From Psammoneis japonica (Eukaryota): 32,536 nucleotides of DNA. Position 1 is the first letter of the stretch. Each line of letters opens with the position of its first letter. The position numbers and the translations under genes are program-made. The stretch is from the NCBI GenBank assembly GCA_008632985.1, contig QPGO01000047.1, positions 388,608-421,143 on the forward strand. Direction: 5' to 3'. The notes under the pieces were generated by a model. It was given only the letters and a program-made list of their open reading frames with translations. It was not told the origin of the DNA and ran no database searches. Of the stretch, positions 1 to 32,536 are shown piece by piece.

Positions 1-687
1 ATGGCGACAATGCACGCACTGTCCCTTTTTGAATTTGGACGTTGGCTCCTTCCAAGGCTTCTTGACAAGGTCGTCGCGATGGCCCGACAGATCGTCCTCG
101 GTTGATGGTAAAAACGATCCCGCCAAGTGCACACGAATGAGAACAGCCAGTGCCACTGCCAACATGAGACGCAAGAGAAATCCCATGAGGCTGCTGATGT
201 CAAAATTCTTGAAAGCCATGCCGATGTGAAACACGACAACCGCAGCAGTCAAATCGAAGCGCTTCAAGACGGCTGCTGCGCTCGCGAAGTCGAAACGCTT
301 GATGCATTCCTTGGACATGCCAACAACGAGTCCCGTGCACTTCAATGAGATGGTTTTGGACTTGATGGCAACGAAATGGAGTTGGCTCCAGATGGGAGAC
401 CCGATGATGGAGGACCAAATCGATTTGACAGTGACGTTCGGAAACCACTGCTGCTTGATGTGCAAAAAGTCCTCCGTGAGCCCCAACAACCCCTGGCACA
501 ATCCGTAGATAAACGTCGAGAATGTCGTGATAGAAACAACATCGAGATCTTGTAGTAAGGCGCAACAGCCGACCCAAAGAGCAAAACGAAGCCAATCGCT
601 CGCGCTCTTGCGTTGAATCACAACTGCAATCAAGTCACAGTGGCTGACATTGACAACGGCGTTCATAAAGAGGATAGAGGACATCAT
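1..687 (-). pseudogene. Mutated copy (5' part) of the 293-aa membrane/Tudor-like gene
   Basis: ATG at 687 corresponds to 5814 in copy B. The frame runs off the window. Many TpA->TG/CA missense changes, e.g. GQYVYYRH -> GQCVHCRH. Inactivation is inferred, no stop was seen. Confidence 0.7.
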
Positions 688-1105
688 GGTGATGATGGAG
701 ATGCAATGTCTTTGTTGCTTGTACCTTCAAAGAAATTGTGACAGCTTGAATCGATGCCTTTCGAAAGGCGCTCGGACAGTCGTCAGCACAAAGACACGTA
801 GAATGTACGAGGAATCCCGGCAAAAAGAAAGTCTTGGCACCGTTTCACCATATGGTATACTAATATCGGGCTGGATATATGTATTGGCCGAAACCGACCT
901 CTAACATCATGGTCACTACCGGTAAACATGTTCCGACATCATGGTGGTGTGTTGCGATCAATTCGGTTGCTTTTTTTCGACGATTTGAAAGATGATGTTT
1001 GTGTGAGGTCAAGAATGTTCATTTCCTACTTTGTCCTTCCTTCTGCCACGTAATTATGAATTTTCTTTCATTCAATTTCTTTATTTATTACTCTTTCTCT
1101 TCATA
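1..1105. repeat. Copy A of the triplicated ~2 kb unit (left-truncated by window; direct orientation relative to copy B)
   Basis: 1-~993 aligns near-identically to 5128-~6122 (offset 5127). Weaker similarity continues to ~1105. Confidence 0.95.
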
Positions 1106-4086: not shown

Positions 4087-6445
4087 TTAGTTGGTCTTTG
4101 TTGTTGATAGCTAGTAGTATAGGGTGGCTACTGCAGTGTCAATCTATTAGGATGGACTATACAGTACTGCTGTTCTTATGCTCGAGACAGACCCCCCGTC
4201 ATTAACAAGAGACTAGTCGCAGCTAAAGGGGGGCGTACTAGTCCGCCGGTAGCAGCGTATCGATCGATTGCGAGTGCAAGCTGTGACACGAACGACAAAT
4301 AGTGCTTTTTATCTAGTTTAAGACAAGACAGAGAAGTGTTGATTAATTTTTCTTGTTTGTTTAATCTTTTTATTGTACAAGACTCTACTCATCTTGATTG
4401 AATGAAACCAAAATAGATTGCCCAACTGAATTAGAATGGCAAAGCGTCTCCTGCAGAGGGAGCAAGAGTTTCTCGTGTTGAATACTTTCCTCGACTTCAA
4501 CTTTCCTTTCTCGATTATTTAACAGCCGCCCCTCTACTTTCAAAAAAGAAGGCACCACCTTCATACCGGTATGAATTTGAGTTTGAGTGCCGCATAGATC
4601 TCTTATTCTCGTTCACATGCTCTGTTCGGAAACAATGACATGTTTCGGAATCAGCTCGAATTAAATGTGCATCCAATACGAGCTTGAATTCAAGACCCAA
4701 TGCAATCAATCAAACTCTCATTCAAAAGTATAAAGATGGCCGCCCTCTGATCTCGACAGTAAAGGCCTTTTCTCGAAAAAAAGAGAGCCCGAGTTGAACA
4801 AAGAATTCAACACGAAAACTCGTCACACCGCATCCACATATGACACTCGGCAATCCTCCCCTGTCGAACATCTCGTTGGAATAATCGTCACAAGATTGCA
4901 CTAACGATATCCCCTTCCCCACATTGAGCACCTTACAATATGTTGCAATCCGGATCGTCGTCAAAGATGTCAATAAAAACCTGAAAGTGACCTGAGCCAA
5001 GCTGGTCCGTAAGGTGGTCCTCGGTCGTCTGTTTCTCGCGTCCGTCGCCCAATTTCACGTCGTAGAACGGGTCAAGGTCATCGTCAAAATGGACCCTTAA
5101 AATCTTTGCTCTCCACGTCTTGTTTGAATGGCGATAATACACGTACTGTCCCTTCTTGAATTTGGACGTTGGCTCCTTCCAAGGCTTCTTGACAAGGTCG
5201 TCGCGATGGCCCGACAGATCGTCCTCGGTTGATGGTAAAAACGATCCCGCCAAGTGCATACGAATGAGAATAGCCAGTGCCACTACCAACATGAGACGCA
5301 AGAGAAATCCCATGAGGCCACTGATATCAAAATTCTTGAAAGCCATGCCGATGTGAAACACGACAACCGCAGCAGTCAAATCGAAGCGCTTCAAGACGGC
5401 TGCTGCGCTCGCGAAGTCGAAACGCTTGATACATTCCTTGGACATGCCAACAACGAGTCCCATACACTTCAATAAGATGGTTTTGGACTTGATGGCAACG
5501 AAATGGAGTTGGCTCCAGATGGGAGACCCGATGATGGAGGACCAAATCGATTTGACAGTAACGTTCGGAAACCACTGCTGCTTGATGTGCAAAAAGTCCT
5601 CCGTGAGCCCCAACAACCCCTGGTACAATCCGTAGATAAACGTCGAGAATATCGTGATAGAAACAACATCGAGATCTTGTAGTAAGGCGCAATAGCCGAC
5701 CCAAAGAATAAAACGAAGCCAATCGCTCGCGCTCTTGCGTTGAATCATAACTGTAATCAAGTCATAGTGGCTGACATTGATAACGGCATTCATAAAGAGG
5801 ATAGAGGACATCATGGTGATGATGGTGATGCAATGTCTTTGTTGCTTGTACCTTCAAAGAAATTGTGACAGCTTGAATCGATGCCTTTCGACAGGCGCTC
5901 GGACAGTCGTCAGTACAAAGACACGTAAAATGTACGAGGAATCCCGGCAAAAAGAAAGTCTTGGCACCGTTTCACCATATGGTATACTAATATCGGGCTG
6001 GATATATGTATTGGCCGAAACCGACCTCTAACATCATGGTCACTACCGGTAAACATGTTCCGACATCATGGTGGTGTGTTGCGATCAATTCGGTTGCTTT
6101 TTTTTCGACGATTTGAAAGATGTTTGTGTGGTTCAGGGAAGTTCAACATTTCCTATTTTGTCTTTTCCTTAGCCACGTATTCTCTATTTAGTAGAGGCTA
6201 TTGTAAAACGATGTCTGTTGTCGTAGGTGGAGCTTTTTATTTAAGACTCTTTCTTCATCCATACACTGCACTGCTGTACTCTAGCTACTACAGTAGTAGC
6301 TAGACCTAACCAACCTCACTAATGTGTGCACGGTACTACTTCTAAGATTTTCAGATTATTATGGAGACTCACGATGGCGATTGCGATCGTTAGTAGCTGT
6401 GCATCGGAGGTATTGATCATAAGTGCTCTGCTGCTCATGGCCGTA
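4081..6445. repeat. Copy B (least mutated) of the triplicated unit. Near-identical core ~4259-6105 with diverged homologous flanks
   Basis: Direct match to 1-1105 and inverted match to 19503-21733. Outer boundaries are approximate. Confidence 0.9.
4933..5814 (-). CDS. Hypothetical membrane protein with C-terminal Tudor/SH3-like beta-barrel
   Basis: Intact 293-aa ORF with hydrophobic segments, then KFKKGQYVYYRHSNKTWRAKILRVHFDDDLDPFYDVKLGDGREKQT, a pattern typical of small SH3-like barrels (fold is inference). Confidence 0.7.
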   Translation of the reverse strand: MMSSILFMNAVINVSHYDLITVMIQRKSASDWLRFILWVGYCALLQDLDVVSITIFSTFIYGLYQGLLGLTEDFLHIKQQWFPNVTVKSIWSSIIGSPIWSQLHFVAIKSKTILLKCMGLVVGMSKECIKRFDFASAAAVLKRFDLTAAVVVFHIGMAFKNFDISGLMGFLLRLMLVVALAILIRMHLAGSFLPSTEDDLSGHRDDLVKKPWKEPTSKFKKGQYVYYRHSNKTWRAKILRVHFDDDLDPFYDVKLGDGREKQTTEDHLTDQLGSGHFQVFIDIFDDDPDCNIL

Positions 6446-9387: not shown

Positions 9388-10007
9388 AGATAGACTAAAC
9401 TCGGTTCTGTCCCGTTGGCCTCGTGAACATGAGAAGTTTGTGGCGAAGCGTGCAATCTTGGGAGACCTCATCCCGAGTAAATGTCGCTGCACTCACCTCA
9501 AATAAATAACGCTAGTAGAAGAGAATTAATGCAGACAGTAGAGCTAACCTTTTGCCGTTCAACTACTTACTACTCGAACTACGGATCGATAGAAAGATTT
9601 ACAAAATTGTGTGCTTGCTCCACACACCAATTTCCGGAGATTTCCCGAGCTGTTTTGCGCTTGTCGCGAGTGAGTCGCGAGGAGTCTTGAAGTCGCGACT
9701 CGCGACCAAAGGCAGTAGGTATTTATCTTCGCGCGATGACCGATCACGCCCACCGCACTGTTGTGGTCGCACAAGCATCATTGAAAAGAGATAAGCAATC
9801 ATAAATCATACCGATCCAATAACTGTACGAATAGAGACTCTTCATTTTCTTGTAGTGTGCGTCTTAACCATACGGTAATAGCAGCAGTGTTGGTAGGATA
9901 TGACCGAGTTGTATATGATGAGCCAATAGTGAAATAGGGCCCTAGACTAGTCCACTCCACGTCGCTCAGCGCTCGCAGAGAAACACAACTGAACAATTTC
10001 AAAGAGG

Positions 10008-11408
10008 ATGCCCGATCCATCAACCTGGCTAGAAAGCAACGCGTTGAGTGCTAGCCTTCTCCTCGGAATTTTTGTCGGCTGCCTGATAGCTGGAGCGTCT
10101 TATGCCTCCGTAGCCAGGTATAGACGAGCCCATTATAGGCTCAAAAGGCACTTTCAAGCATTGCCTACTCTTGGCGGAGGAGATCATCCTAATGACGGAG
10201 AAGAAGAGCAAGATGAAGAGAATCATCAAGGGACCGTTGAAGGAGGTGCCGGAAATGACGACAACGATACGGATGATATTGAGGCGGCTCTGGCTCTGGA
10301 GCCACAGCAGTCAGGCGCTGAAGAAGAAGCGGGAGATGGAGAACATAACGACTATTCTCCAACAGCGACTGAGACGACACCGGTTCAAGATCTTGTGCTC
10401 GAGCTCACGATGAGACACGGAGTATATTATGTTTTGTTGTCGTCTCCAATTATTATTCTTGCCATCTTTGTTGATGTGTACCGGCCGCTGGTTGTAATTT
10501 ATGCGCTCCTCTGCTCTTTTGAGGTATCAGAAATCATCATTTACCCGTCTTCTGACTGGGTGCTTCGGTCATGTTACCATGAACGACGTGGAGTTGAACG
10601 CTTCTACAAGCCGTTATTCAAGAATAATCCATTTGGAACAAGTCTCCTGTCACTTTTTGCTCTGATTCAGGCGTTTGCCCTTGCTGCGGTTTGGATTTAC
10701 GTCGCCTTTGAGATAAACGAGCAAACCAACTCTTTTTACTGGATTTATCAAAACATCATGGGAGTTTGCATCGCCCTGTCTTTCCTCAAGAAGCTAGTAG
10801 TCAACTCACTCAAGGTATCTGCTTTCATATCAGGCGTCACGATGGTATACGATTTCTTCTTCATCTTCGTGGTCCCTCACATCATTGGCAGAGGCGAAAC
10901 TTCTTTCTTTGACGACGACATGTTTGATAGTGATTTCTGCCAAGGCAATCCTGACCACGTAGACTGCCAAGCAGAGCCGTTTGGAATACCCATGGTTCTG
11001 ACTATTCCCTGGATTAACGACGAGCGCGGACGCTACAGTCTCTTGGGATTGGGTGACATTTTGATGCCAGGTTTGCTGGTTAGTTTTGCGGCGCGTTTGG
11101 ACGAAGCCAAGCGCATCACGTCGCTAGTTAATCTACATGTTTCCAATGTCCCAGGTCATTGGTGGAAGGGTTATTTTGTTCCTCAGGTCACAGCCTATTC
11201 TGTTGGGTTAGTGGCTGCTTTCCTGGCTGTTGCCTTAATGGGGGTTACCCAACCAGCTCTCATCTACATAATGCCAAGTTGCTTAGCAACGTTCTTCTAT
11301 GTGGGACGGAGTGAGTTAAGGGAACTATGGAACGGTCCTGAGTGCATCCCATGGGCCAATAACTTAGTTCGCTACGCGGCGAAGGAAGTGCCGTACCGCA
11401 ATTCTTGA
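10008..11408 (+). CDS. Signal peptide peptidase-like intramembrane aspartic protease (peptidase A22B)
   Basis: 466-aa multi-pass ORF with catalytic motifs YD (MVYDFFF), LGLGD and QPALIY. Confidence 0.93.
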   Translation: MPDPSTWLESNALSASLLLGIFVGCLIAGASYASVARYRRAHYRLKRHFQALPTLGGGDHPNDGEEEQDEENHQGTVEGGAGNDDNDTDDIEAALALEPQQSGAEEEAGDGEHNDYSPTATETTPVQDLVLELTMRHGVYYVLLSSPIIILAIFVDVYRPLVVIYALLCSFEVSEIIIYPSSDWVLRSCYHERRGVERFYKPLFKNNPFGTSLLSLFALIQAFALAAVWIYVAFEINEQTNSFYWIYQNIMGVCIALSFLKKLVVNSLKVSAFISGVTMVYDFFFIFVVPHIIGRGETSFFDDDMFDSDFCQGNPDHVDCQAEPFGIPMVLTIPWINDERGRYSLLGLGDILMPGLLVSFAARLDEAKRITSLVNLHVSNVPGHWWKGYFVPQVTAYSVGLVAAFLAVALMGVTQPALIYIMPSCLATFFYVGRSELRELWNGPECIPWANNLVRYAAKEVPYRNS

Positions 11409-11529
11409 ACACCTCAGGCCGAGAATGACTGCACTGATTTACAGTGCGGCGTGGATGGATTCAACCTTGGTTACAATGGAAAAGTCGACCATAATGCCAT
11501 CTAGCACAACTGATTTTCCTGTTTAAGTG

Positions 11530-14500
11530 TAGAAATGGCCGCGACTGCGGCTCCGGCAATTTGCCACAAAGCCAATGCCATGACCAAGGGGGCTGCCAAC
11601 TCCTTCTCGCGGAAAAAAGGACAGCCGCTGCAGCCAGAAGCACAATGCACCATTGCCACCACTATGTTGAGTTCCAGCTCAGTTTGCACAACGTCTCCTC
11701 TAAGAAAAACAAAACCATGTCCAACAACCCTCTTTGCCACGTGGAACTCTGACAGAAAACGAGGCGAGAAAAAAAAAGAGAGAACAAAAGCAGCAGAGAC
11801 GCTCTCATTGACACAACAACGAACATGACTAAAACAGATGATGATGCTAAAGACAAATCACTTGAAACACAACTTTGGAATGCAGACCTTTTGTGCAAGT
11901 TGCCAGACAACAGAGCAGCAACAGGCCATTTTGAGACAATTGCTGAAGACAGTGCTTTCTGTCACTTGTCCCTCTCTTGTGGCCAGTGCACTCCCTGCAG
12001 AGCTCTCTGCTTGGTTGTGTCACAAGAAACAGGAAACCAGACCTCAAGCTGGAGCCTGCATCTGTGAGAAGCCTGGGTGCAAAGCTCCCAATGCAAGAGA
12101 GAGAGAGAGAGAGAGCCACGCAAGAAAAAGAAGGGTGTGGCCGCCGCCCAAGCAATCGAGGCTCACTCTGTGCTCATCAATGTGCGGTGTGACATTGACA
12201 AAAAGAAAGAACAAGGCTGCAGCAGCTTGAGGGTGAGATTGCAGCAGCTCAATCTGACAGCTTGCGATGCACAGAGCTGCTTCTTCATTGGATGGACATG
12301 TCTACACAGCCCAACAAGACATCAGGACAATGTGGCAGATGGGAGCGTGGGTTTCCGCCTCAGCTTCTGAGCGGTGGTGGGGGATGAGGCATCTGTGGGC
12401 TGTGCAAGTTTCATGAGCAGGAAGTCTGTGGAAACTGGGTCATTGTCTTTTGCCACATGAAGCAAGTTGAGCACTAAAAGAAATTCAGAAATGTGTTTCT
12501 TCTGCTGCGGCACTTTTGTTTTTCTTGTGTGTTTTGCTCTTTGTTGTTTTCCAGAAGGGCACACTTGAGTGGCTTTTGCCCTTTTCTCATCATTGTGTTT
12601 TCTGCAATTGCCTGTTCTGCATGCCACAGAAATGCAATTGATGGAAACAACACCAGCATTCTGCCAGCGCCATTGAAGAAAGCTCAAAGTTGACAAGGGC
12701 CAGCAGCTGCTGGGCTCATGAGCTGTGCCAACAAAAAATGCTGCAAAGCTCTCATCTGGTTTGGTGCTGCAAGTCATTGAAGATGACAAAAGAGAGCTCT
12801 GCTTTGCTTGAAGCACAATGAAGTGAGAAACTGCATGGTTGTGGGTGGGCTTCTTTGGGGACATCTGGCACATGGTCAAGGAGACAGCTCACAACAATGG
12901 GTGACTCCCAGGCCAGCTCAAAGTGCTTGTGAATGACCAATGCATTGTGATTGTCTGTGGATGGAAGGGGTGAAGAAGCAAGAGAGACAATGTCAGCACT
13001 GCTCCAGTGCTGTCTCATCTTTGCAAGTGGAGCAGAGAGGAGTGGCCACTCGAGTGCTGCTGTGTCTGCCTCAGTGCTGCTGGAGCAGAGCACAAGAGCA
13101 CACACACCAGTGCTTTGCAAAAATCTCATGGATTTTGGGTTCCATTTGGCAAGCTTGCAAAGAAGAGTGATGCTCTCACAGACACAAACAAACAAGCTCT
13201 GCGGACAAGCACAAATGTGAAAAAATCATTCTTGACAAGAGCCAACAAAGATCACACAGGCAGAAAATCAGACATCAATCTTCTGCAAACACATCATGCA
13301 CACTGGATCTGACTCAAACAATGTCTCAACATCCAGCTCAAAAACAAGTGACATTGCTCAAATGAAGTTGACAGCTGGTTGAAACCAAACAAATCACTCA
13401 ATTTTTAAGTTGGTTTGAACAATTTGCAACTGCAAAAACAACAAAAAAAGACACAGGGAATGACCATCAGGCTGACTGGCTCAGCATCATGCCAAAAAGC
13501 ACATCATTGCCACCAACCAACACACCAAATGCAAAACACAGGATGCTGCCTGGGGCACCCTGTCAATGACGGCATTGTGAGAAAGCAGCAGCAGAGCCAA
13601 AAAAGGACTGTGCACAACCAAACAAAAACAGCAGAGAGAAAAGACAAGAGGTTCTTGGAAATGTGACATGAAATGTGAAAGCAGGCAGCTTTCAGAACAG
13701 TGCAAAAAACTGATGCTTTTGCTTTGACACAACATGAGTTGCACCTGGGGCAAACACCATGGTGCTGCAACATTGCACAAAAGTGGGCAGAAGCATCATC
13801 ATCACCAAACTGTTTCCACACCAAAAACGTGCAAAGCTCATGACTCCCATGCACTCTTCTCTCCCAGCAGGCAAAGCTCTGGTGCCACTCAAATGATGAA
13901 TGTCACACAAAGAATTTGGCATTTGTTGAGTGACAAACAATGGGAGCATGGCACCAAGTGGAGCACAAGCACCAAGACTGGAGCACATGACACAATGCCA
14001 GAATGACCAAGAGAGACAGGGTGCTGTGCAGATGGCAAAAGACCATGGGGGGATGAAAAAAACAACAGAGCAAAGAGAAGAGAGTGGGCGGCAGAGAATG
14101 AAAACATGCAGGAGAGAAAGTTGACATTGCCAGAAACCCAAATTGTGGTGTGCATGGGTCAAATTGTCAGCAGCGTGCAGACAATGCAAAAGGCAATCAA
14201 TGAGATCAATTTGTGCAGTTTTTGTCAGAAATGAACTGTGCACCAGCAATTTGTTGCAGATGCACTGTTGTTGCTCCCAAGAACAAAAGCTGACAAGTCA
14301 CAAGTTTTGTTCATTGGTGCTCCCCACTTTGAGTGTCAATTTGTCGCATCTGCACAAGAAACCACCCACAATGAATTTGTTGCTGACATGTGCAAAATTA
14401 GTTTTGTGAGGGATCACATGCACTGCAAGACCAAATTTCCTTGGACATTGTTTCCCACTTTAAGTTTTCACTCAATTGTCAAAAAAGCCTTGGACCACAC

Positions 14501-15600
14501 CAAAGAAGCACTTGTTGAGAACACATCAATCTTGTCAAGCACAGATCAATTCTGAGTCAGAGCAACAACATTTTCCAGACATGAGACAGCTCTCTCCACA
14601 CAGCTTTGATCCCTTGACTTCCAGATCTTTTTTTTAATGCCACATCTTTCTCCCAGACTCAGAACAAGAGTTGACTCTTCAAAAACCATGGAGGGGGTTG
14701 CCAGCAGCTGGCAACAATGTGGGCAGCAGTGCAGCCAACAGAAGACAAAAAGACTGACACAGAGATGCAAAGTTGATGACTTTGGAAGGCCAGTTTGTGC
14801 CAAAATGGCAAGCCCAAAGAATCCTTTGCACCCTGGGAGGTTGGTGTGTCATGCATTTCCACCTGCATCTGCCAAAAAGAGGATGGTCAGATGACTTGCT
14901 GGCAAGCTGTCCAAGCGCACCGCCTTTGTCATTTGCCATGGTGTCGTGCTGGTGTCGTGCTCTCCCTTGAGCAAGAGGCTCCATTTGCAGAGCATGCAAA
15001 CCAAGAACACAGCTGGACATGGCAACACTGCCAGCCAAGCAACACACCAGCTGACTGCTGCACCCATTGTTTTGGGTGGAAAAGCATGGCCAGGGGGAGA
15101 GCAGCTGGGGCAATGCCCGCTGTTTTGGGCAGAAGCGCAGCCGGGAGAAGAGCAGCTGGACAGCTGGGACAAAGCAGGAAAAGAAAGGTGCTGGATCCTT
15201 TGTGCTCATTCTTGGCTCAGGCAAAAATGGCAGGAGGGGCACCATGCTTTTCCAGAGATCACATGCTGCCCCAGCACAAGTTGGTCACAAAGCATCAACA
15301 AAAAAGAAAGGTGCTGGGTTCAGGCAAAAAAATGGGGGGAGGAGGGGGCACCAAGCTTTTCTGGAGATCACGTGCTGTCCCAGAATGCAAGTCAGTCCAG
15401 ACTTGGTGCTTTCATGCACACTGGAGCTTTTTGCAGAGGGCGCACAAGGCAGGAGGTGTCTTCTGCCCTGCAGCGCTGCACTTTGCCATGGATGAGATGG
15501 GAGCGGAGATTGGATGGGATGCCGCCGTGTTTCGGTCGGGGACGGACACAAGCGGACAGGAGGCATGTTCGCAGTTTTTTGTTTGTGTTGTTGTATCCAC
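11530..15600. other. Heavily mutated block almost devoid of TpA and strongly depleted of CpG. Probable decayed repeat/mobile or duplicated DNA of unknown identity
   Basis: Only 6 TA dinucleotides by manual count in 11881-15540, few CG, large excess of TG/CA. No recognisable domain. Edges are gradual and approximate. Confidence 0.85.
12096..12115. repeat. (AG)10 microsatellite
   Basis: Directly visible. Confidence 0.9.
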
Positions 15601-15869
15601 AAAAGGTGTTTCGCGGCGCAGCATCTTCATCTGGGTTTGCAATTAAGTGCAACAATAACGTTCAACGTGTTGGAAGCTGACAGCCGCAAAGCACAACATG
15701 ACACTAAAGTCAGCAGCCGTAGCTGGCTAACGACTTGACCCAAGGAGGCGACAGCACTAAACGCGAGAACAAAAGCAGACCCTCCTACCAAGAAGTCATG
15801 TATGATATGAGCACGGCGTACCAGTCATTGATTTATCGAATCCAAACGAATCGGAATTGATCAAGCAAG

Positions 15870-16800
15870 TGTCAGTAGCCTGTAGACTAGTACTTCTGGG
15901 TTCTTCCAAGTAACAAAACCACGGCATCCCTCCGTCTCTCTTACAAAAGTTCAGGAAGCAATCTGAGCTGTATTTCGATTTACCATATATGAAACGAAGA
16001 AGAAATGGAAACGTAACGAGTGCAATGCACGAGGCTTTTTTGACGATGAATTGACAAAGCAGCGTCGGGATTGGAAAGAATGTATCGATGTAGGCGTGCC
16101 AGGTTCTCGTGACTGGTCCTTATTGGATGATGATAAGCGCAACGAGTGCTTGGACGGAATGAACCAACTTCCGGATCAAATTGCGTCTCTAATGGCCAAG
16201 GGGCTTTTTGTTTTAGACAAAATACTTGAGCAACCTCAAGAGTTAGCCAATGAGAAATCCATTGCATCGGTCGAGTTGGAGGCAACTGCCAGCGTTTTTT
16301 GGAGGCAATGAGGAATAATCACGCCTCGTATCTGAGAATCAATTATTATCCGCCGTGTCCCCAGACGGAACCCCACCTTCACTGCCTCCTTTGGGTACTG
16401 TATTTCGCCTCACAAGGATGCCGGATTGACGGGTGTCATTTACTGCAGGTGGCGCGTCACGAGCCTTGTCTTGCTGATGGCAGCATGTTCGATTTTGACA
16501 AGCTAGACTGGGTCACGGTGCGACCCATCGAGGGAGCGCTCACAATTAATGCAGGAGACATGGCCATGATTTGGTCTAATGGGCGCTATCGTGCCCCACT
16601 TCATCGTGTCAGAACCGTTCCTATCAAACGTAGATATTCTTCGCCATTCTTCTACAATCTTGGGTACAACACCCTTGTCTCGCCCGCACTGGTCGGTGAA
16701 CAGGAAGAACCACAGTATCATGGTTGTCTGTGGGGGTATTTCCGTGCTGTGCGATTTGCCGGAGACTTGACTGACTTGCGGATTATCGTGTGAAGAAGAA
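15870..16800 (+). pseudogene. 2OG-Fe(II) dioxygenase (IPNS/DIOX_N type) pseudogene
   Basis: GFFQVT/NHGIP, ARGFFDDELTKQRRDWKE, YLRINYYPPCP, ISPHKDAG (HxD), INAGDM..WSNGRY..PLHRV and RYSSPFF are split over several frames. Confidence 0.85.
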
Positions 16801-17044
16801 CAAGAACGACGAGTCGCCGCATTTGAAGAAAAAGCGGATTTCCATCAAGCCTTTAGTGTGGAAAGGTACGGCCTCTTCTTGTCGGCGAGGTGGATTAGTT
16901 CATGCGAGGGCGACGTTTTGATGAGAGGCTTCAATTTTATAGATCGTAAGGGACATTAGTATGATTGACAGAGTACACGACTGTACACCACTCTAGAGTG
17001 GGCGAATCATCGCTATCAGTGCTCTCTGTTCCAGCGTTAGCGTC

Positions 17045-19025
<1,981 letters not shown>

Positions 19026-19502: not shown

Positions 19503-21733
19503 TGATACAGCCATGAGAAGCAGGGCACTTGCAGTATTATCGCAATGCCGCTCTGATGACAGCCGCACCTCATCGATTGATCGCCATCGTGGGGATTATG
19601 ATCAGTATGTATGAAGAAAGAGTTCATAAATAAAAGATCAACCAGCGAAGAAAGACATCGTCAAACAATTGCCTCTACTATATGAAAAATACGTGGCAGA
19701 GGAAAAGACATAATAGGAAATGTTGAACTTTCCTGACCCACACAACATCGATCAAAGCGTCAAAAAGCAACCGAATTGATCGCAACACACCACCATGATG
19801 TCGGAACATGTTTACCGGTAGTGACCATGATGTTAGAGGTCGGTTTCGGCCAATACATATATCCAGCCCGATATTAGTATACCGTATGGTGAAACGGTGC
19901 CAAGACTTTCTTTTTGCCGGGATTCCTCGTACATTCTACGTGTCTTTGTACTGACGACTGTCCGAGCGCCTTTCGAAAGGCATCGATTCAAGCTGTCACA
20001 ATTTCTTTGAAGGTACAAGCAACAAAGACATTGCATCTCCATCATCACCATGATGTCCTCTATCCTCTTTATGAACGCCGTGATCAATGTCAGCCACCAT
20101 GACTTGATTGCAGCTGTGATTCAACGCAAGAGCGCGAGCGATTGGCTTCGTTTTGCTCTTTGGGTCGGCATTGCGCCTTACTACAAGAACTCGATGTTGT
20201 TTCTATCACGATATTCTCAACGTTTATCTATGGATTGTACCAGGGGTTGTTGGGGCTCACGGAGGACTTTTTGCATGTCAAGCAGCAGTGGTTTCCGAAC
20301 GTCACCATCAAATCGATTTGGTCCTCCATCATCGGGTCTCCCATCTGGAGCAAACTCCATTTCGTTGCCATCAAGTCCAAAACCATCTTATTGAAGTGCA
20401 TGGGACTCGTTGTTGGCATGTCCAAGGAACGCATCAAGCGTGTCGACTTTGCGAGCGCAGCAGCCGTCTTGAAGCGCTTCGATTTGACTGCTGCGGTTGT
20501 CGTGTTTCACATCGGCATGGCTTTCAAGAATTTTGATGTCAGCAGCCTCATGGGATTTCTCTTGCGTCTCACATTGGCAGTGACTCTGGCTGTTCTCATT
20601 CGCATGCACTTGGCGGGATCGTTTTTACCATCAACCGAGGACGATCTGTCGGGCCATCGCGACGACCTTGTCAAGAAGCCTTGGAAGGAGAAGGGACAGT
20701 GCGTGTGTTGTCACCATTCAAACAAGACATGGAGAGCAAAGATTTTAAGGGTCCATTTTGACGATGACCTTGACCCGTTCTATGACGTGAAATTGGGCGA
20801 CGGACGCGAGAAGCAGACCACCGAGGACCACCTTACGGACCAGCTCGGCTCAGGTCACTTTCAGGTTTTTATTGACATCTTTGACGACGATCCGGATTGC
20901 AACACATTGTAAGGTGCTCAATGTGGGGAAGGGGATGTCGCCAGTGCAATCTTGTGACGATTGTTCCAACGAGATGTTCGACAGGGGAGGATTGCCGAGT
21001 GTCACATGTGGATGCGGTGTGACGAGTTTGCGTGTTGAATTCTTTGTTCAACTCGGGCTCTCTTTTTTCGAAAAAAAAAAGGCCTTTGCTGTCGAGATCA
21101 GAGGGCGACCATCTTCACACTTTTGAATGAGAGTTTGATTGATTGCATTGGGTCTTGAATTCAAGCTCGCATTGGACACACATTCAATTCGAGCTGATTC
21201 CGAAACATGCCATTGTTTCCGAACAGAGCATGTGAACGAGAACAAGAGATTCATGCGGCAATCAAACTCAAATTCGCACCGGTGTGAAGGTGGTGCCTTC
21301 TTTTTCGAAAGTGGAGGGGCGGCTGTTAAAAAATCGAGAAAGGAAAGTTGAAGTCGAGGAAACTGTTCAACACGAGAAACTCTTGCTCCCTCTGCAAGAG
21401 ACGCTTTGCCATTCTAATTCAGTTGGGCAATCTATTTTGGTTTCATTCAATCAAGATGAGCAGAGTCTTGTGCAATGAAAAGATAAACAAACAAGAAAAT
21501 TTAATCAACACTTCTCTGTCTTGTCTTGAACTAGATGAAAAGCACTGTTTGTCGTTCGTGTCACAGCCTGCACTCGCAATCGATCGATCCAAGGCTGAGG
21601 ACGTCACTGCACAACCGGCGGACTAGTGTGGCACCCTTTAGACTAGCTGCGGACTTGTCTCTTGTTCAGCACAGATTGACAGCAGCCACACTCTGCTGCC
21701 AGTCATCAAGAACAAATGCCAACAAACTGTGCA
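19503..21733. repeat. Copy C (inverted) of the triplicated unit. Core ~19762-21588
   Basis: Reverse-complement match to 4081-6445. Confidence 0.9.
20050..20912 (+). pseudogene. Disabled copy of the 293-aa membrane/Tudor-like gene
   Basis: 1-bp deletion near 20170 (frameshift), 18-bp deletion (PTSKFK lost) and YVYYR -> CVCCH. Confidence 0.9.
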
Positions 21734-21785
21734 GTGTCTCTGGTTGCAGTCAGGCCAAGTAGATCCATTCCACCTGCATGTCCCC

Positions 21786-22985
21786 TTAGATGAAACCACA
21801 AGAGAGCAAACGCCTTAACACTCGAAACATTTCGTGTGGAAGCTGGAAAGAATGCAGCTTGATTGTGAAACTCGAGGCACCAAGAAAGACATTTTCAATG
21901 CACTTTGCACGAATCGCCTTGGAGGCGAGAATTGCAGCAGTTTCTGGTTGATCCAGCACCCAGAGAGCAACGTCGTGGGTCTTTTCTGTCACTGTTTTGG
22001 CCTGCTTTATGTCCACTCCTTTGCTGCGGCAGGCCAAGAGGCCGAATGTCCTTGAAAAGATGTGCCAAGTGTGCATCCTCCGCCTTCTGTTCTGATGCTT
22101 CTTGGAATGAGTGTGCACGGCAAATGGACGTGCTTTTTTCTGCATCGAGCATGTCCGCCATGAGGAGACGTCTCTCTCCAAAGTGCGTTGGAGGCCCTCG
22201 CCCACCAATGCAGAAACATGCGAATGCCATGAGGGCAAAGGGCTTTCCAGCCTCAACAATGGCCGTGCTGGCTTTCCAATCGAAAAAGAAATCATCTCCT
22301 TCCTCTACGTTGTCGTCATGCTTCATGGCAAGTGCAAAGGCCAAGCGAATCAGATTCGAATCTCATCGCTGAGCCACCGTGTTGAACCGTAGTTTGCCAC
22401 ACCAACCATCCGTCAACAAATTAAAGTTGGAAATGTCGAAAGACATCAGAACTCTTTCTCGCATTCCCATGCCAAGAGGCGCTTCGGGTCCCACCAACTT
22501 GAGCGCTTCCTCCCTTCCACGGTCAACTTCTCCTTCAATCTCCTCCACACCTTTCCCAGACGCAATGAGTCGTTTCCCCCTTGACATGATCCATTGCGAC
22601 TTTCGCACTTCCCTGACACGATCAAGGCGAGCTAGAAGTGGAGCGAAAACATCCACTTTCCCCAGCTCCTCGGCAACAGGTCGAAGAGCAAGCCCAGTTG
22701 GCCAAAGGGAGGAGCTCCGATCTGCTTCTGTTGCAAACAAATCAAACCTGCTTCGACCATGTTCACTGCAAAATGCTTCCATGGTTGAAAACGCAGCGAT
22801 GACATCGACCCGATCACACTCAATGACGGGAACCGATCAGTGCGGTTCCCATGATTTCATTGGCATGGCGAAGACACCACTTGCTGCAGCAGTTTGCAGG
22901 ATCCACCGAAAACAACAATGGCGGAGCCTTCCAATGCATCAGAAGCCACATGGCAGCATCAACGCCTCTCGAGCCGACGGATGTG
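21786..22985 (-). pseudogene. Degenerate coding-like sequence of unidentified origin, TpA-depleted
   Basis: Protein-like frames (SVPVIECDRVDVIAAFSTMEAF...; LWVLDQPETAAILASKAIR...) broken by TGA and shifts. Not recognised as the continuation of beta-COP. Confidence 0.4.
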
Positions 22986-23049
22986 TCAAGTAAAAAAAAA
23001 CACGCTTCTTTCCGGAAATGGTTTCAAAGGCCTCCACATCAATTTCCTC

Positions 23050-23790
23050 CGCACAGTGTCCAAGTGTTCACCCAAGATCCAGAGACAAACACATGTTGCA
23101 TTGCTTGAAGAACTGTCGTTGATGAAACCCAACAACTTGGGCAAGATGGATCCTCGCAGTGCGATGCACTGTTCGACAATGGCTCTGACAAAAAGAGCAA
23201 CCTGCACAGAACCATCCGCGGCCAAAAAGTCCATGAGAGCAAAAACAACCGACTCGGCAAAATTGGGAAATCGCACAGCGCATCTGTGAACGGCCCAAAT
23301 CAGCATGTTCTGGCAGGCCATGCTCTTGGCTTCCGCCATGGTGCGACAGAGTCCTGCTCTTGAGCAGTCTCGGCCACAACCTCGCGATTGAGCATCAACA
23401 CAAAAATCAGCAACGTCCATGGCAACATCGAGAACCTTCTCGCAAAAATCAGTGCTGCGGAACCAAGCGTGCGAAGAATGCCCATCAGCAGCTGCAAGAT
23501 CTTGCAATGAAGAGTCTTGAGGTCTTCCAACCGTTCAAGAACAATGAGCTTGACAAGTTTAAGTTTGCACAGGTGGAGCGGCAATGGGTGCCGAAAAAAG
23601 CGACGCTGGAACACAAGCTGCCTCGTAGGACACGGCAGCAGATGTGCTGGAAAGCATTGGAAACGAGATCCGGACAAAATCGTGACTTTTGGGTAGGAAC
23701 ACGACGACACAGCTTGGACCATGACAAAGGCCGCCGCTGGACATTGTCAGCAAATCCATTGAGTTGGCAGACATGATTGAGTTCGGAACT
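23050..23790 (-). pseudogene. COPB1: Internal fragment of coatomer subunit beta (beta-COP)
   Basis: FVRI...MLSSTSAAVSYEAA, VKLIVLERLEDLK..ILQLLMGILRTL, AVHRCAVRFP..AESVV.ALMDFL, FVRAIVEQ and LWILGEH follow the beta-COP trunk order across frameshifts. Confidence 0.85.
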
Positions 23791-28480: not shown

Positions 28481-28646
28481 ATCCACGCACCGGTGTCAAC
28501 TCGCAACGGAGTTGCTGCCACTCGTTCGTCTCGTTACAGACGACATCCCATCCAACGGCGATCTTCTATGTCGCAATCCAACGGCGATCATCTGTGTCGC
28601 AATCCCCACCTGCTAATCGATCCTCTGTGTCGAATCATCCATAACC

Positions 28647-31112
28647 ATGTCCATGGATCCTGACACCGTCAAGATGTTTGCTGAGGCCTTCACCAAGATG
28701 CAAACCTCGACCAACCCTCCTACGATCCCCACGCCGCTTCGCGGCGGCATCCACCACTCTCATGGAGTGCATCTGGGTGGTTCGGCTCTGAACAACAAGT
28801 GCGAGCAGACCGACACCCGCACCTGCCGTTTTGCCTCGCAACGTCGCCATCCAAAGGCTGTCGACTCTGTCGAGCGATCTCTCAGAGATCAACTCGCTTC
28901 GGCAACCACATCCAAGTTCAACGGCCAGATTGAGTTGTCCAACGGTTCCAGCACTGAACTGGACAAAGACCACTTTGTCAAGACCATTCAGGACTTAATC
29001 GAGTCACACGGACAAGAAACTTTCTACTGTCTCAAGAAAGTCGACGGCAAGGTCGTGTGCCTTTTTGATCATCTTCACGCCTTCACTGTCAAAGACCTTG
29101 AGAAGGAACATGAGACCCGTGTGGCGGCTGCAGGTGACGAAGGCTACGATCAGTGTGAAATCGATGACATCGGCTTGTCACAACTCATCGTCAAGTCACG
29201 CATCACCGAAACCTTCCGTGAAAAGATTGAAACCAAGTTTAATCACTTGAAGAACTGCAAGGATCTTCCGGGGTCTGTCTCATTTATGATGGCTCTGGAC
29301 ACCTGCAACGCCAGTGCTCTGGTTGACGTCAAGGCCGCCAAGGAAAAGTTGAACGACTTAACTCTGGATGACTGCCCTGGCGAAGACTGCACCGAGCTTG
29401 CAACCGAAGCTCTGCGCCTGCTCAAGATCATGCAGACGGACTGTGCGTCACCAGTTGAAACTGGGTCTGCTGTTTTATCTAAGGTGTCAAAGACATCCTC
29501 CGAGTTTTTCAATCGTCAAGTTTTTGCCAAGCTCGACTCCGTCAAGCGCTTGGAGCGCAAATGTCGCTTGCGTGACCCGGCAGAAGTCCCCAAGGATGCC
29601 GACTGTGCGGATCTCGGACCTGTTGGCCTCATTGGCTGGATCACCAAGACCCATGGCGAACTCATTAGCGATGAAGATTGGCCTGCCTTAGCAGCCAAGC
29701 TCCCGGAATCCAACCTCACCAAGGACAACTCGGAAAAGCATTGCTGCGGCTGTGGCAAGGTTGGGTGCACCAAACGCATGTGTCCCACCTGCAAGGAGCA
29801 ATGCAAGAAGGACAAAAAGGGCACGGCAGACAAGTCCAAGGATGACCCTCCGGATGTCCGGAAGACTGACCCTTCCAAGAAACCACCCAAGCCGGCCTGG
29901 CGTTTCGTTCACAAAGGTGCCACTGTCACCGACGAGAAAGGCACGACCTGGCACTGGTGCGACAAGTGTGTGAACAAGGAAACGGGCAAGAAGGGCATGC
30001 ATCAAGGCCACTCCTCCGCTCAACACACCGGGAAACCGTCTGTCAACACCGAAACCACCGCTGCGGCAAATTTATCTGCTGTGTCGGACCCCTCTTCGGG
30101 CATTCCTTTTGGTCCTCCCAAGCAGACGACGTCTCCGCCTACAGACGAACCCTCTGACCCTAACGAGCTGGTTTATTGCGGCATGTGGTGTGCACCTGTG
30201 GACGACTCTTTGGGTTCGACTCCAGTGACTACGACCGTCTCGTTCACTCCTGCTCCATCGGCCGAGAGGGAGACTGCCGTGGCCAAACCCGCTCCCATCT
30301 TGGTTGAAACGGTTGACCCCGAAGACGCTGACGATTGCTCTGAGTGCTCCAACGCTCACTCCTCTTTTGACTCCCTGCCGTCAGCTGTCGAGCTGTTTCC
30401 GGCCTGTGCCATGCATGAGATTCAAAATCCGGACGTGTTTTATGACACGATCGCAACTCACGTGGAAGGTCTGTCCGACGATGTGTTAGACGATCTCGTT
30501 TCCGGGGCAAGCATCCCACCTTTCGAAGACAGCTGCGAGCACTTACCTCCAAGCACCCAGCATCGCGGTTTCGAATTTTACGATCCCGAACCCCAAGATG
30601 TTGATTGTGGCATCGAGGAGGCAACGCCGAGCTCTCGTCTTGAGCTTTTCTGGAACTTCTTGAAGCTCCGAGTTTTCTGGCTGTTTGCTGTGTTCTGGGA
30701 AACGGCACTGCACATTTGCTGTGCGCCGATTCCTGTCTTACCTCGTCGTGTGCGCCGCAAGGCATTCATCCCAACCATTCACGGTTTCCCCTCTACCTGG
30801 ATGGTGCTGACTGGAGCTGTCATGGTCTGGGCATCTGTTTTCAACGGTCAGCTTCCCACGCATCCATTCTCCAATGTCCCCTCTCGCTTCTCCAAAGCCA
30901 GCTCTCAGGTCTGCTCGATCATTGAAGAACTGGACGATGAGACAGTGTTAGATCCGGGCAGTTTGGTGGAATGCAACAAGATCAAGGCGCGACAAGTGCT
31001 TGCCGAATTTGTGGAGCGCGATCCGGACCATTGTCTGAGCAAGAAATTCACGCAGCTCTGGGAGAACGACGCATGCTCTTCCCTAGGCCGCTGCATCCCT
31101 CCAGCTCTATAA
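28647..31112 (+). CDS. gag: Copia Gag-like ORF with long C-terminal extension, Tyr-depleted
   Basis: 821-aa ORF with CCGCGKVGC..MCPTC and WHWCDKC...H.GHSSAQH motifs. About 35 Cys versus 5 Tyr by my count. Confidence 0.8.
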   Translation: MSMDPDTVKMFAEAFTKMQTSTNPPTIPTPLRGGIHHSHGVHLGGSALNNKCEQTDTRTCRFASQRRHPKAVDSVERSLRDQLASATTSKFNGQIELSNGSSTELDKDHFVKTIQDLIESHGQETFYCLKKVDGKVVCLFDHLHAFTVKDLEKEHETRVAAAGDEGYDQCEIDDIGLSQLIVKSRITETFREKIETKFNHLKNCKDLPGSVSFMMALDTCNASALVDVKAAKEKLNDLTLDDCPGEDCTELATEALRLLKIMQTDCASPVETGSAVLSKVSKTSSEFFNRQVFAKLDSVKRLERKCRLRDPAEVPKDADCADLGPVGLIGWITKTHGELISDEDWPALAAKLPESNLTKDNSEKHCCGCGKVGCTKRMCPTCKEQCKKDKKGTADKSKDDPPDVRKTDPSKKPPKPAWRFVHKGATVTDEKGTTWHWCDKCVNKETGKKGMHQGHSSAQHTGKPSVNTETTAAANLSAVSDPSSGIPFGPPKQTTSPPTDEPSDPNELVYCGMWCAPVDDSLGSTPVTTTVSFTPAPSAERETAVAKPAPILVETVDPEDADDCSECSNAHSSFDSLPSAVELFPACAMHEIQNPDVFYDTIATHVEGLSDDVLDDLVSGASIPPFEDSCEHLPPSTQHRGFEFYDPEPQDVDCGIEEATPSSRLELFWNFLKLRVFWLFAVFWETALHICCAPIPVLPRRVRRKAFIPTIHGFPSTWMVLTGAVMVWASVFNGQLPTHPFSNVPSRFSKASSQVCSIIEELDDETVLDPGSLVECNKIKARQVLAEFVERDPDHCLSKKFTQLWENDACSSLGRCIPPAL

Positions 31113-32536
31113 GACCTCGAGTCCTGCTTCGACACCTGTGATTCAGAGGAAGCCCTCGGCCCGCTCCCGAACGAGCCGAGCCACTACTTTGACACGGTTG
31201 AGGAGCTCTCTCCGGACTATTTTCGTTTCGACGAGCTGTCCACCAAGTTTGGTTTCGTGGACACCACTCCATGGCAAGACCCTGTGAAGCTTCTCCAGGC
31301 AGCCACTGACGGAACCGAAGCCTGTCCTGCTCATACCTCTGTGCAGGTGTTGACAGGCCAACGTTCTTTAGCACAACTCGCCGCCGACCTGCAAGCTTTG
31401 CTGAGCCTGGCACATGAGTGCCACACCGTCACATGCGATGCTGGCGCATCCTCAGCCATTGCTTGCGATGAAAACGACTTTGTCGGACCTCCAACGATCC
31501 CTGATGGCCCGTTGAAGCTTGGGGGTCTAGCAAATGGCTTAACCATCGCCGGCATCGGACCCGTCTCCTGGGTTTTCCATGACGAGGACGGCTCTGAGCT
31601 CGTCGTCAAGACGATGGCGTGCCATGCACCTCAGGCCGGACAACGTCTTCTATCCCCACAACGCCTCTACAGCAAGGAACATGGCATGACAGGAAAATGT
31701 GAGGGAGACGAGGACTCATTTCGAGTGCATGTTGATGGCGCCGGTTCGCTCAAGGTCGCGCACGCGTCAAATCACTTGCCGGTTGCGTCTGTGACCAACG
31801 GGGTGGCACCCGCTCCTCAAGTCAATCTGTCTGTGTTGCACGAGGACAACCAGAACCTCACCACCGGTCAGAAGCTCCTTCAAGAATGGCACTTCAGGTT
31901 TGGTCACCTGAACATGCCACGCATCCAAGGCCTGCTTCGGGCCGAACCTTTTCTCCGACCCAAATTCAAGCATGCTTCGCGTTGCGACATTCCGCGGTGC
32001 GAGGTGTGCGAACATGCCAAAGGACATCGCCGAACCCTCAAGTCTGCCAAACATGCGGCTACTCCAGAGCGTGAGGGTGCTCTTCGAGCCGAGCATCTAC
32101 GTCCAGGCCAAGCCGTCAGCGTGGATCACTTCGAATCCCGTCTCCTCGGCCGAACCTACGACTCCTGCGGGAAGGCCTCGTCCCAGCAATACAAAGGAGG
32201 CTGCATTTTTGTGGATCATGCCTCCGGTTACCCACATGTTGAACACCAACTTGGTTTCTCTGCTGTGGAAATGGTGCGAGCGAAGCAAGCGTTTGAAAAG
32301 CACGCGATGGACCACGGCATCATCATCCAAGAATTTCTTGCCGATTCTGGCGCTTTCAAGGCCAACACTTTTGTGCAATACATGCGACAGCACGAACAAC
32401 GTCTCCGTTTTTGCGGAACCAACGCCCACCATCAGAATGGCGTCGCAGAACGCGGCATTCGCTCCGTCTCCAACATGGCGAGAGCGATGCTCCTCCACGC
32501 ATCCATCCGTTGGAAGGGGGGCACAGACAGCTCTTT
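31113..32536 (+). CDS. pol: Copia pol region (protease, GAG-pre-integrase, integrase core), same frame as gag after one TAA, runs off window
   Basis: VTCDAGASS (protease), RLLSPQ, LQEWHFRFGHLN...CEVC, PGQAVSVDHF, CIFVDHASG, ADSGAF and AHHQNGVAERGIR. Missing from the ORF track because it has no stop before the window end. Confidence 0.92.

Follow-up and report, generated by a model that had tools for sequence, protein, structure and literature searches.

A block of 4063 bp in the window, the whole stretch of 32,536 nucleotides that was analyzed, retains only 10 TA steps and has lost most of the CpG steps of its core (Table 1). It is probably the relic of a silenced repeat that was saturated by a transition process converting TA to CA or TG, with CpG decay added in the core. 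In the window, this process runs in one direction, depends on sequence context, is one-sided and copy-specific, and affects both strands. According to the proposed mechanism, 5'-TA-3' would become CA or TG through an A:T to G:C transition that can fall on either strand; RTA and TAY would be favored and YTAR spared, and the process would have reached saturation over all of the block. In the core, ∼85% of CpG would also have been lost, most simply through deamination of methylated cytosine, making CA/TG the common end product of both. A process that mutates repeats by attacking A:T rather than C:G pairs is apparently undescribed, and a full-text literature search found no description of TpA-to-CpA/TpG mutation of repeats. 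The block sits between a signal peptide peptidase (SPP) gene and a 2OG-oxygenase gene, and the surrounding DNA is best read as nuclear, from a diatom-like stramenopile.

Table 1. Location and character of the features of the window
Feature	Position	Strand	Character
Repeat copy A	1..1055	+	Partial, truncated at window start; TA-depleted
Repeat copy B	4259..6264	+	Dispersed repeat, unmutated, serves as reference; TA 43.9 per kb, equal to background
ORF of 293 aa in repeat copy B	4933-5814	-	
SPP gene	10008..11408	+	Flanking gene, TA normal; Peptidase_A22B, E 3e-42
TpA-depleted block	11531..15593	.	Non-coding relic of repeated DNA (best reading); 10 TA in 4063 bp
Left shoulder of block	11531..11820	.	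TA-poor, CpG-normal; 2 TA and 13 CG in 290 bp
CpG-depleted core of block	11821..15370	.	25 CG in 3550 bp (7 per kb)
Right shoulder of block	15371..15593	.	TA-free, CpG-normal; 0 TA and 11 CG in 223 bp
2OG-Fe(II) oxygenase domain	16299..16793	+	Part of flanking gene, TA normal; PF03171, E 1.5e-18
Repeat copy C	19605..21588	-	Same repeat as copy B; graded TA loss
Adaptin-like pseudogene	21600..23560	-	Adaptin_N, E 8e-11; second TA-depleted zone, CpG normal
Copia-like retrotransposon	28600..32536	+	gag_pre-integrase match; truncated at window end; TA-poor

Composition and extent of the block

An earlier note on this DNA had counted six TA in the 3660 bp of 11881-15540 and had described CG as rare there and TG and CA as dominant. 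The recount gave the same six TA, corresponding to an observed/expected ratio (O/E) of 0.02, compared with 240 ± 12 (minimum 201) in 1000 mononucleotide shuffles and 30-186 (median 140) in the 202 other windows of 3660 bp in the stretch. The description of the remaining steps was borne out by CG (n = 33, O/E 0.16, compared with 170-250, median 194, in the other windows), CA (n = 443, O/E 1.79), and TG (n = 379, O/E 1.84). Poly-A/T runs and AT had also been called intact, which is accurate for the runs (AA 1.19, TT 1.38) but less so for AT, which was mildly low at 0.74. The O/E of GC was high (1.39). TA was under-represented throughout the window, with an overall O/E of 0.45.

The edges of the block are sharp, dense TA ending at 11530 and restarting at 15594, and it contains the window's three longest runs without TA (993, 959, and 931 bp). 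Background density would predict ∼145-180 TA, of which 6-10 are retained. CG density in the core was 7 per kb, whereas ordinary DNA in the window has 48-55 per kb. The sum of TA, CG, CA, and TG was nevertheless 235 per kb, close to the 244-247 per kb of ordinary DNA; transitions alone would give such a near-normal total of Y-R steps, and this mass balance fits the view put forward in the earlier note that TpA and CpG loss funnel into TG and CA. The block matches the surrounding host DNA in GC content and Y-R step density, and its + strand is purine-rich (RR 0.319 versus YY 0.211). Both shoulders of the block and the zone at 21.6-23.6 kb have lost TA with CpG at a normal level, which indicates that TA loss and CpG loss are separable processes.

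Coding content of the block

In each of the six frames of the block, TAA and TAG together occurred 0-3 times and TGA 22-30 times per ∼1220 codons. Of the 66 open reading frames (ORFs) of at least 100 aa in the window, 14 overlap the block, and the four that were checked contained 0% Tyr, 3.8-8.1% Cys, 3.7-6.5% His, and 4.3-6.7% Gln. Long, Tyr-free frames rich in Cys, His, and Gln are expected on all six frames from a TA process that eliminates TAA and TAG and by which no stop can arise. The thicket of such ORFs is thus explained, as had been suggested, by loss of TAA and TAG, but TGA still limits their length.

A Pfam search of the six translated frames, with stops written as X, returned no family at E ≤ 1, and an Rfam search of the block returned no match at E ≤ 0.1. 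For the ORF at 13695-14249 on the - strand, a search of proteins of 101-324 aa yielded 30 candidates, none with E ≤ 0.001. The block is best read as what remains of moderately repeated DNA that is now dead and non-coding.

Direction of TA loss in copies of a dispersed repeat

Copies B and C of the dispersed repeat are 93% identical across 2011 bp. Among 86 aligned TA of copy B, 37 were replaced in copy C, by CA (20) or TG (17), but none of the 46 TA of copy C had become CA or TG in copy B (binomial p for 37:0 = 1.5e-11). CpG changes between the two copies were symmetric (6 versus 6). Approximately 43% of TA had changed, the remaining changes amounting to ∼4% of sites, and AA, TT, and AT steps were mostly spared except where they overlapped TA. 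The loss was graded along copy C (21/26, 15/29, and 1/23; chi-square p 5e-7), with its peak adjoining position 21588, and the CA and TG products were interleaved (19 runs versus 19.4 expected; runs test p 0.51).

Copy A carries CA or TG at 20 of 45 TA sites of copy B. At three sites where copy B keeps TA, copies A and C differ in product, one having CA and the other TG, and at eight sites they share the same product. In these two copies, TA loss also ends at a common point, near position 5790 of copy B. Part of the loss in both may therefore go back to a single ancestor that was already mutated, instead of having been made in place. A search of the ESM Atlas with the 293-aa ORF of copy B produced no usable match.

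TA loss in an adaptin-like pseudogene and a Copia-like element

The reading frames of the adaptin-like pseudogene are broken, and its zone contains 6.1 TA and 46 CG per kb. At three of three positions conserved as Tyr in homologues, the adaptin-like ORF has Cys, Cys, and His; Tyr was present at these positions in 43/47, 42/82, and 72/75 homologues, respectively, among the 84 best of 150 hits. A protein fragment of Cyclotella meneghiniana, 58% identical to the pseudogene, gave the same three Tyr changes. Taken with the 37-to-0 imbalance and the three two-product sites, these replacements support the direction of the TpA process that the earlier note had invoked.

In the Copia-like retrotransposon, the O/E of TA was ∼0.2, and Tyr made up 0.6-1.2% of two long ORFs. 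Its surviving TA are strand-asymmetric, with 23 YTAY versus 2 RTAR (p 2e-5). A search of metagenomes with the Copia integrase protein gave 11 pattern matches, of which none was confirmed.

Sequence context of TA loss and survival

Surviving TA in the two saturated zones were of the form YTAR in 15 of 22 cases, compared with 148 of 833 in background DNA (p 2.7e-7). In the block itself, the T of all 10 survivors is preceded by a pyrimidine, and three survivors are TTAA sites. From copy B to copy C, 3 of 13 YTAR had changed versus 34 of 73 TA in other contexts, a difference that is not significant alone (Fisher p 0.14). A strand asymmetry among the survivors of copy C (YTAY 11 versus RTAR 2) was considered as a clue to mechanism and set aside, the same bias being native to copy B.

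RCA reached 37-38 per kb in the block versus 13-22 per kb elsewhere, and TGC was also in excess, as is predicted if RTA is converted to RCA and TAY to TGY. The context of the survivors, the excess of RCA and TGC, and the near-normal Y-R total together link the TA process to the block. Its TA loss would, by analogy, have been made by the process seen in the neighboring repeats.

Repeat status of the block

Two contigs of sequencing run X1 match the block without a single difference, across 845 and 696 bp, although X1 may be the source data of the assembly, in which case this agreement with the window is not independent. The depth of these contigs approximates that of the single-copy flank. Run X1 also contains diverged look-alikes of the block, ∼87% identical, one of which shows 56 differences and 8 gaps over 495 bp. 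Across 9500-24500, transitions predominated among the differences of X1 contigs from the window (A>G 222, G>A 187, C>T 178, and T>C 166), each type of transversion occurring 29-57 times. Divergent alleles could account for the diverged look-alikes, as could, with lower probability, a second organism in the sampled material. The earlier note had held that its reading would fall if the block were expressed, conserved coding DNA whose orthologues share its composition, or foreign DNA natively low in TpA. The findings support neither case: the searches above gave no Pfam, Rfam, or protein relatives, and run X1 contains these diverged look-alikes.

A contig of depth 58 in run X1 passes unbroken from the SPP gene into the left shoulder, up to 11853, and this shoulder looks single-copy. 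Both TA-poor zones inside 9500-24500 have look-alike contigs; so does the DNA at 15.6-19.6 kb, where TA is normal. Since copy B and 15.6-19.6 kb are repeated yet TA-normal, repetition alone does not predict mutation. In a second run, X2, both flanks were covered, depth was 0.37 in the bin 11504-12004, and no contig lay on 12005-15511. No RNA data set turned up for the block either, and both observations are uninformative on expression.

An exact 22-mer of the block had no match in metagenomes. Five short arrays were the only tandem repeats detected, and a repeat finder reported short families only. A BLAST comparison of the block with the rest of the window in purine/pyrimidine code reached at best 58 bits, within the 56-66 bits of five shuffles, and thus showed no concealed relationship to the Copia-like element or to anything else in the window.

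Possible mechanism and alternative explanations

The pattern suggests that the TpA process mutates silenced or repeated domains at the DNA level, where they lie, in the manner of repeat-induced point mutation (RIP) in fungi. Our best guess at its chemistry, and only a guess, is enzymatic deamination of adenine at T-A-Y to inosine, which is read as G. Tentatively, diatom-like stramenopiles might possess a defense analogous to RIP, in which the TpA steps of silenced or repeated DNA are hypermutated in situ, most likely by deamination of adenine at T-A-Y on both strands.

Mutation before integration is an unlikely alternative route to the same state. A UA/TA-specific deaminase, following ADAR- or APOBEC-like logic, would edit retroelement RNA or first-strand cDNA, reverse transcription would fix the changes, and the block would have arrived by insertion as a retro-copy already carrying its mutations, instead of being mutated where it lies. 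Its sharp edges would fit such an origin, as would its purine-rich + strand, retroelement sense strands often being purine-rich. The loss in copies A and C ends near the start codon of the repeat ORF and so roughly spans the part likely to be transcribed, and the survivors of the Copia-like element are strand-asymmetric; that asymmetry can, however, be explained by coding composition, Tyr codons being TAY. Editing of one strand predicts one product, but copy C interleaves 20 CA with 17 TG, and Tyr has given way to both Cys and His in the adaptin-like ORF. The TA-poor shoulders also keep normal CpG, and the X1 contig shows the left one to be continuous with unique DNA. A passive by-product of chromatin, in which silenced, late-replicating DNA suffers error-prone repair synthesis or poor mismatch repair with a polymerase hotspot at TA, is also doubtful. 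It would accommodate repeat copies that are unaffected and domain boundaries that in some places depart from the repeat units, as at the block's shoulders and in the gradient of copy C, and a precedent exists in DNA polymerase eta, which makes errors at A:T pairs within WA motifs during antibody hypermutation. Against it stand the extreme specificity of the B-to-C changes for TA, the near-complete loss of TA from the block relative to expectation, and the intact AA steps, which a WA-type hotspot would erode too.

It is very improbable that the block is natively TA-poor, whether as foreign DNA or through selection against TA in avoidance of a TA-cutting nuclease or a TA-targeting transposon. 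The ancestor of the block was not recovered, and the low overall TA of the window lends this reading some room. The block nonetheless equals the surrounding host DNA in GC content and Y-R step density, offers no coding or RNA signal on which selection could act, and has diverged copies in run X1; the signature is demonstrably derived in the neighboring repeats and the pseudogene, and three surviving TTAA sites would be unexpected under avoidance of TTAA-targeting elements. We know of no genome with a TA O/E near 0.02. Even less credible is an artifact in which sequencing or polishing misread modified bases at TA, and 5-methylcytosine at CG. Base modifications can cause context-specific miscalls on some sequencing platforms, but copies B and C differ at 37 TA sites within one assembly, two copies carry different products at three sites, and the pseudogene has frame breaks besides. 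The error-free match of the X1 contigs to the block also speaks against miscalling, with the reservation already made about the origin of that run.

Comparison with known systems

The proposed in-place TpA process resembles RIP of ascomycete fungi in its heavy, one-sided, dinucleotide-specific transitions, which affect some repeat copies and fall on both strands, as seen between copies B and C. In both cases, compositionally aberrant blocks lie beside normal genes, and similarity to the source element is erased. RIP, however, converts CpA to TpA (C:G to T:A), raises TA and AT content, and creates stops. Here TpA is converted to CpA or TpG (A:T to G:C), TA vanishes, GC content is ∼48%, and no new stop arises; in place of the C:G-to-T:A change with TpA excess that marks RIP, TA is the ancestral state and is lost to CA and TG. 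The mutated base differs, and the chemistry therefore cannot be that of an RID-type cytosine methyltransferase or deaminase. RIP is moreover fungal, whereas the TpA process occurs in a stramenopile. Passages of PMC9998398 describe a diatom DNMT4, of unknown function, as related to fungal RID.

Erasure of TpA would call for chemistry of another kind, directed at adenine or thymine in DNA. To our knowledge, targeted hypermutation of repeats as a genome defense has been found only in fungi and against cytosine, and we know of no natural example of TpA-erasing chemistry on adenine or thymine in DNA. A RIP-like TpA system, if real, would be the first hypermutator found in nature to make A:T to G:C changes in DNA and would take repeat-mutating defense beyond fungi for the first time, and it would inactivate genes through missense (Tyr to Cys or His) and loss of stop codons, not through nonsense. 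TpA erasure would explain the unrecognizable state of some algal repeats and would yield misleadingly long ORFs that gene callers may annotate. The O/E of TA, set against gain of CA and TG, would offer a simple genomic read-out for the responsible gene across stramenopiles, and a DNA enzyme with a strict T-A-Y rule would be relevant to base editing. Candidates for that gene include additional paralogues of TadA/Tad2 type and the CDA-like deaminases carrying SAM and Tudor domains that PMC3239186 describes as restricted to stramenopiles.

Editing of retroelements by ADAR and APOBEC3 is similar in that deaminases drive clustered transitions that can be fixed in genomic copies. Such editing leaves strand-coordinated runs, whereas the products here are interleaved, with no excess of one-strand A-to-G runs in copy C, and the dinucleotide rule is far stricter. 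The product of APOBEC3 is G-to-A. ADAR is described, in passages of PMC3239186, as metazoan-specific, which also weighs against editing before integration. Fungal A-to-I mRNA editing by Tad2-Tad3-Ame1, for which passages of PMC13431901 report a 21.8- to 233-fold preference for TA over AA, CA, and GA, likewise targets an A that is preceded by T and is read as G. The resemblance is in rule only: that editing acts on mRNA with no genomic change and belongs to a different lineage, and its motif as given there, TTAGGA, has G after the A, whereas the TpA process favors TAY and spares YTAR.

Methyl-CpG decay of silenced transposons covers only the CpG part of the pattern, given that the shoulders and the zone at 21.6-23.6 kb are TA-poor with normal CpG. 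Diatom transposons are reported as CpG-methylated in passages of PMC9998398. In the core of the block, the CpG O/E of ∼0.16 and the excess of TG and CA form the classic footprint of such decay, the CpG deficit being balanced by the TpG/CpA excess with the Y-R sum conserved.

Composition and Limits of the TA-poor Block

Within the N-free window of 32,536 bases, dinucleotide counting over 11881-15540 gave only 6 TA (observed/expected (O/E), 0.02), whereas 240 ± 12 (minimum, 201) were expected from 1000 mononucleotide shuffles of the block, and 202 other 3660-bp windows of the same sequence contained 30-186 (median, 140). CG was also rare (n = 33; O/E, 0.16; 170-250 in the other windows), and CA (n = 443; O/E, 1.79) and TG (n = 379; O/E, 1.84) predominated. 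AA (1.19) and TT (1.38) were intact, with AT at 0.74 and GC at 1.39. An earlier note had described nearly extinct TA, rare CG, dominant TG/CA, and intact poly-A/T runs and AT, and had proposed a sliding-window dinucleotide comparison; its observation was confirmed in every detail.

By TA positions, the TA-poor zone (block 1) extends over 11531-15593 and holds 10 TA, with dense TA up to 11530 and again from 15594; no TA-free gap elsewhere in the window is as long as the three found inside it (993, 959, and 931 bp). The CpG-depleted stretch is narrower (11821-15370, 25 CG in 3550 bp), leaving a left shoulder (11531-11820, 13 CG and 2 TA) and a right shoulder (15371-15593, 11 CG and no TA) that are normal in CpG and poor in TA. 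A second TA-poor zone, at 21.6-23.6 kb, contains 46 CG per kb. CpG loss is a layer separate from TA loss, being absent from the shoulders and the second zone.

Each of the six frames of block 1 contains 0-3 TAA/TAG and 22-30 TGA, and 14 of the window's 66 ORFs of at least 100 amino acids overlap the block. The four examined contain no Tyr and abundant Cys, His, and Gln, in line with the Cys/His/Gln-rich ORFs previously attributed to loss of TAA/TAG. Change of TA to CA or TG removes TAA and TAG and never makes a new stop codon, so long ORFs in TA-poor DNA, including the 821- and 426-residue ORFs of a Copia-like element, are no evidence of function.

Direction of TA Change

Copies A, B, and C of a dispersed repeat are 93-96% identical. 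At the 86 aligned TA of copy B, copy C has CA at 20 and TG at 17, whereas at the 46 TA of copy C, copy B has CA or TG at none. These 37 sites make up one third of the 116 B/C substitutions; CpG changes were symmetric (6 versus 6). The TA density of copy B is 43.9 per kb versus 41-46 in ordinary DNA, indicating that B is not a TA-enriched copy, and classical RIP acting on B was ruled out for lack of such enrichment. At three sites with TA in B, one of copies A and C has CA and the other has TG, a pattern for which an ancestral TA is the sole single-step explanation.

The adaptin-like pseudogene is independent evidence on polarity. The fragment shares 58% identity with a Cyclotella meneghiniana protein, and its 182-residue ORF reads Cys, Cys, and His at the three positions at which Tyr occurs in 43/47, 42/82, and 72/75 homologues (profile from the best 84 of 150 listed matches). 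Together with the one-sided copy differences, these positions imply that TG and CA are derived states of TA, which supports the earlier interpretation of a TpA process leading into TG/CA. A TA-specific, one-sided, two-strand transition process has thus acted on some repeat copies and a pseudogene.

Context and Distribution of TA Loss

Both strands are affected, the CA and TG products being interleaved in copy C (19 runs versus 19.4 expected, p = 0.51). Surviving TA lie in YTAR in 15/22 cases in the two saturated zones versus 148/833 in the background (p = 2.7e-7), and all 10 survivors in block 1 have a 5' pyrimidine. Between B and C, TA was lost at 3/13 YTAR sites versus 34/73 in other contexts, which is in the same direction and not significant alone (p = 0.14). 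The YTAR survivors imply that the favoured target is R-T-A, equivalent to T-A-Y on the opposite strand.

TA loss along copy C declines from 21/26 beside the adaptin-like core to 15/29 and then 1/23 at the far end (p = 5e-7), and copy A has the same profile (13/18, then 7/27). In both copies, loss ends near B 5790, ∼20 bp from the start codon of a 293-residue ORF. This shared end may reflect descent from one mutated copy, 8 same-product sites being common to A and C, or may be imposed by the element itself, for instance by the extent of its transcribed portion. The ORF itself (4933-5814, minus strand, in copy B) had no match in Pfam or Atlas.

In block 1, the context of the survivors agrees with that of the process. 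ACA and GCA occur at 37-38 per kb (versus 13-22) and TGC at 34 per kb (versus 17-22); GC steps are up and AT steps down, the shifts that GTA-to-GCA, TAC-to-TGC, ATA-to-ACA, and TAT-to-TGT changes would produce. The sum of TA, CG, CA, and TG is 235 per kb versus 244-247 per kb in ordinary DNA. Since transitions leave the number of pyrimidine-purine steps unchanged, this near-equality makes the block resemble ordinary host DNA rewritten by transitions only. Its plus strand is purine-rich (RR, 0.319; YY, 0.211), a bias that must be ancestral.

The Copia-like element has a TA O/E of ∼0.2, and its two long ORFs contain 0.6-1.2% Tyr. The TA that survive in the element show a strong strand asymmetry (YTAY, 23; RTAR, 2), which could arise from coding composition or one-strand editing.

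Identity of Block 1

Pfam searches of block 1 in all frames gave nothing at E ≤ 1, and there was no Rfam match, no large tandem or terminal repeat, and no protein relative of its 185-residue ORF; when the block was compared transition-blind with the remainder of the window, no match exceeded shuffles. Two contigs of public run X1 (records 4 and 5) match the block without a single difference over 845 and 696 bp, and the diverged contigs of this run include record 2, with 56 differences and 8 gaps in 495 bp. Across 15 kb, 900 X1 contig pieces fitted, 259 at ≥99% and 223 at <90%, the differences being mostly transitions. Block 1 is read here as belonging to a family of moderate repetition, with the caveats that allelic divergence could account for the diverged contigs and that the assembly may itself have been built from X1. 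Many X1 look-alike contigs also cover the adaptin-like zone, which is unusual for a housekeeping gene and suggests that the pseudogene was captured by a mobile element or duplicated with one. Contigs of a second run, X2, match the peptidase gene exactly over 9854-11509 and start again at 15653, bracketing the block; this run has the look of a transcript-style assembly.

Possible Mechanism and Known Systems

The process would target DNA in situ within silenced domains, and it probably acted on block 1 for so long or so often that the TA remaining there are refractory sites. If RNA or cDNA had been edited prior to integration, the abrupt limits of block 1 would be accounted for, whereas the interleaved CA/TG products would not. 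As to the chemistry, our best guess is that adenine is deaminated enzymatically at T-A-Y. Tad2/Tad3-type deaminases (PMC13431901) were the sole activities encountered that strictly require a T before the A, and stramenopile-restricted deaminase families of undefined role have also been predicted (PMC3239186). A thymine modification mispairing with G and a polymerase error hotspot in chromatin under poor repair are live alternatives. The 2OG-Fe(II) oxygenase gene beside block 1 matches PF03171, which we take to be distinct from the TET/JBP family, and so no link between this gene and base modification is seen.

The logic is that of RIP, namely repeat-directed hypermutation, but the defining feature of RIP is inverted here, in both the base that changes and the direction taken. 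Fungal A-to-I mRNA editing, as described in PMC13431901, shares the dinucleotide rule, but the present change is genomic and has a different 3' context. Full-text searches of non-subscription literature returned no account of repeats mutated from TpA to CpA/TpG, either in diatoms or in other organisms. On the evidence of one window, we rate the process as belonging with repeat-directed hypermutation.

Gene Setting

Features of the window
Feature	Position	Strand	Remark
Repeat copy A	1-1055		dispersed repeat
EamA transporter	1305-2726	-	
Repeat copy B	4259-6264		dispersed repeat
Saccharopine-dehydrogenase-like ORF	6587-8161	-	
Signal peptide peptidase	10008-11408	+	
2OG-Fe(II) oxygenase domain	16299-16793	+	PF03171; adjoins block 1
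DEAH-helicase parts	17045-18498	-	
Repeat copy C	19605-21588	reversed	dispersed repeat
Adaptin-like pseudogene	21600-23560	-	Adaptin_N, E 8e-11; broken frames; second TA-poor zone
RRP36	25138-26187	+	
DUF6824 ORF	27533-28009	-	
Copia-like element	28600-32536	+	∼28.6 kb to window end

The window is eukaryotic with few introns, and the best named relative of its signal peptide peptidase is in the diatom Seminavis robusta (36% identity). From this relative and the Cyclotella meneghiniana match of the adaptin-like fragment, the host is taken to be a diatom or closely related to one. At 10136, within this gene, the T of a TA step is replaced by C in the sole X1 contig spanning that position; the data sets differ here by TA versus CA at one site. 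Look-alike contigs over the TA-normal stretch 15600-16700 also differ at several sites by TA versus TG/CA, with TA in the window at 15729 and 16623 and in the contig at 16551; given these differences, copies of ordinary-looking DNA elsewhere may also be affected. Just beyond the second TA-poor zone lies a short tandem duplication of ∼31 bp (24294-24363, 97% identical).
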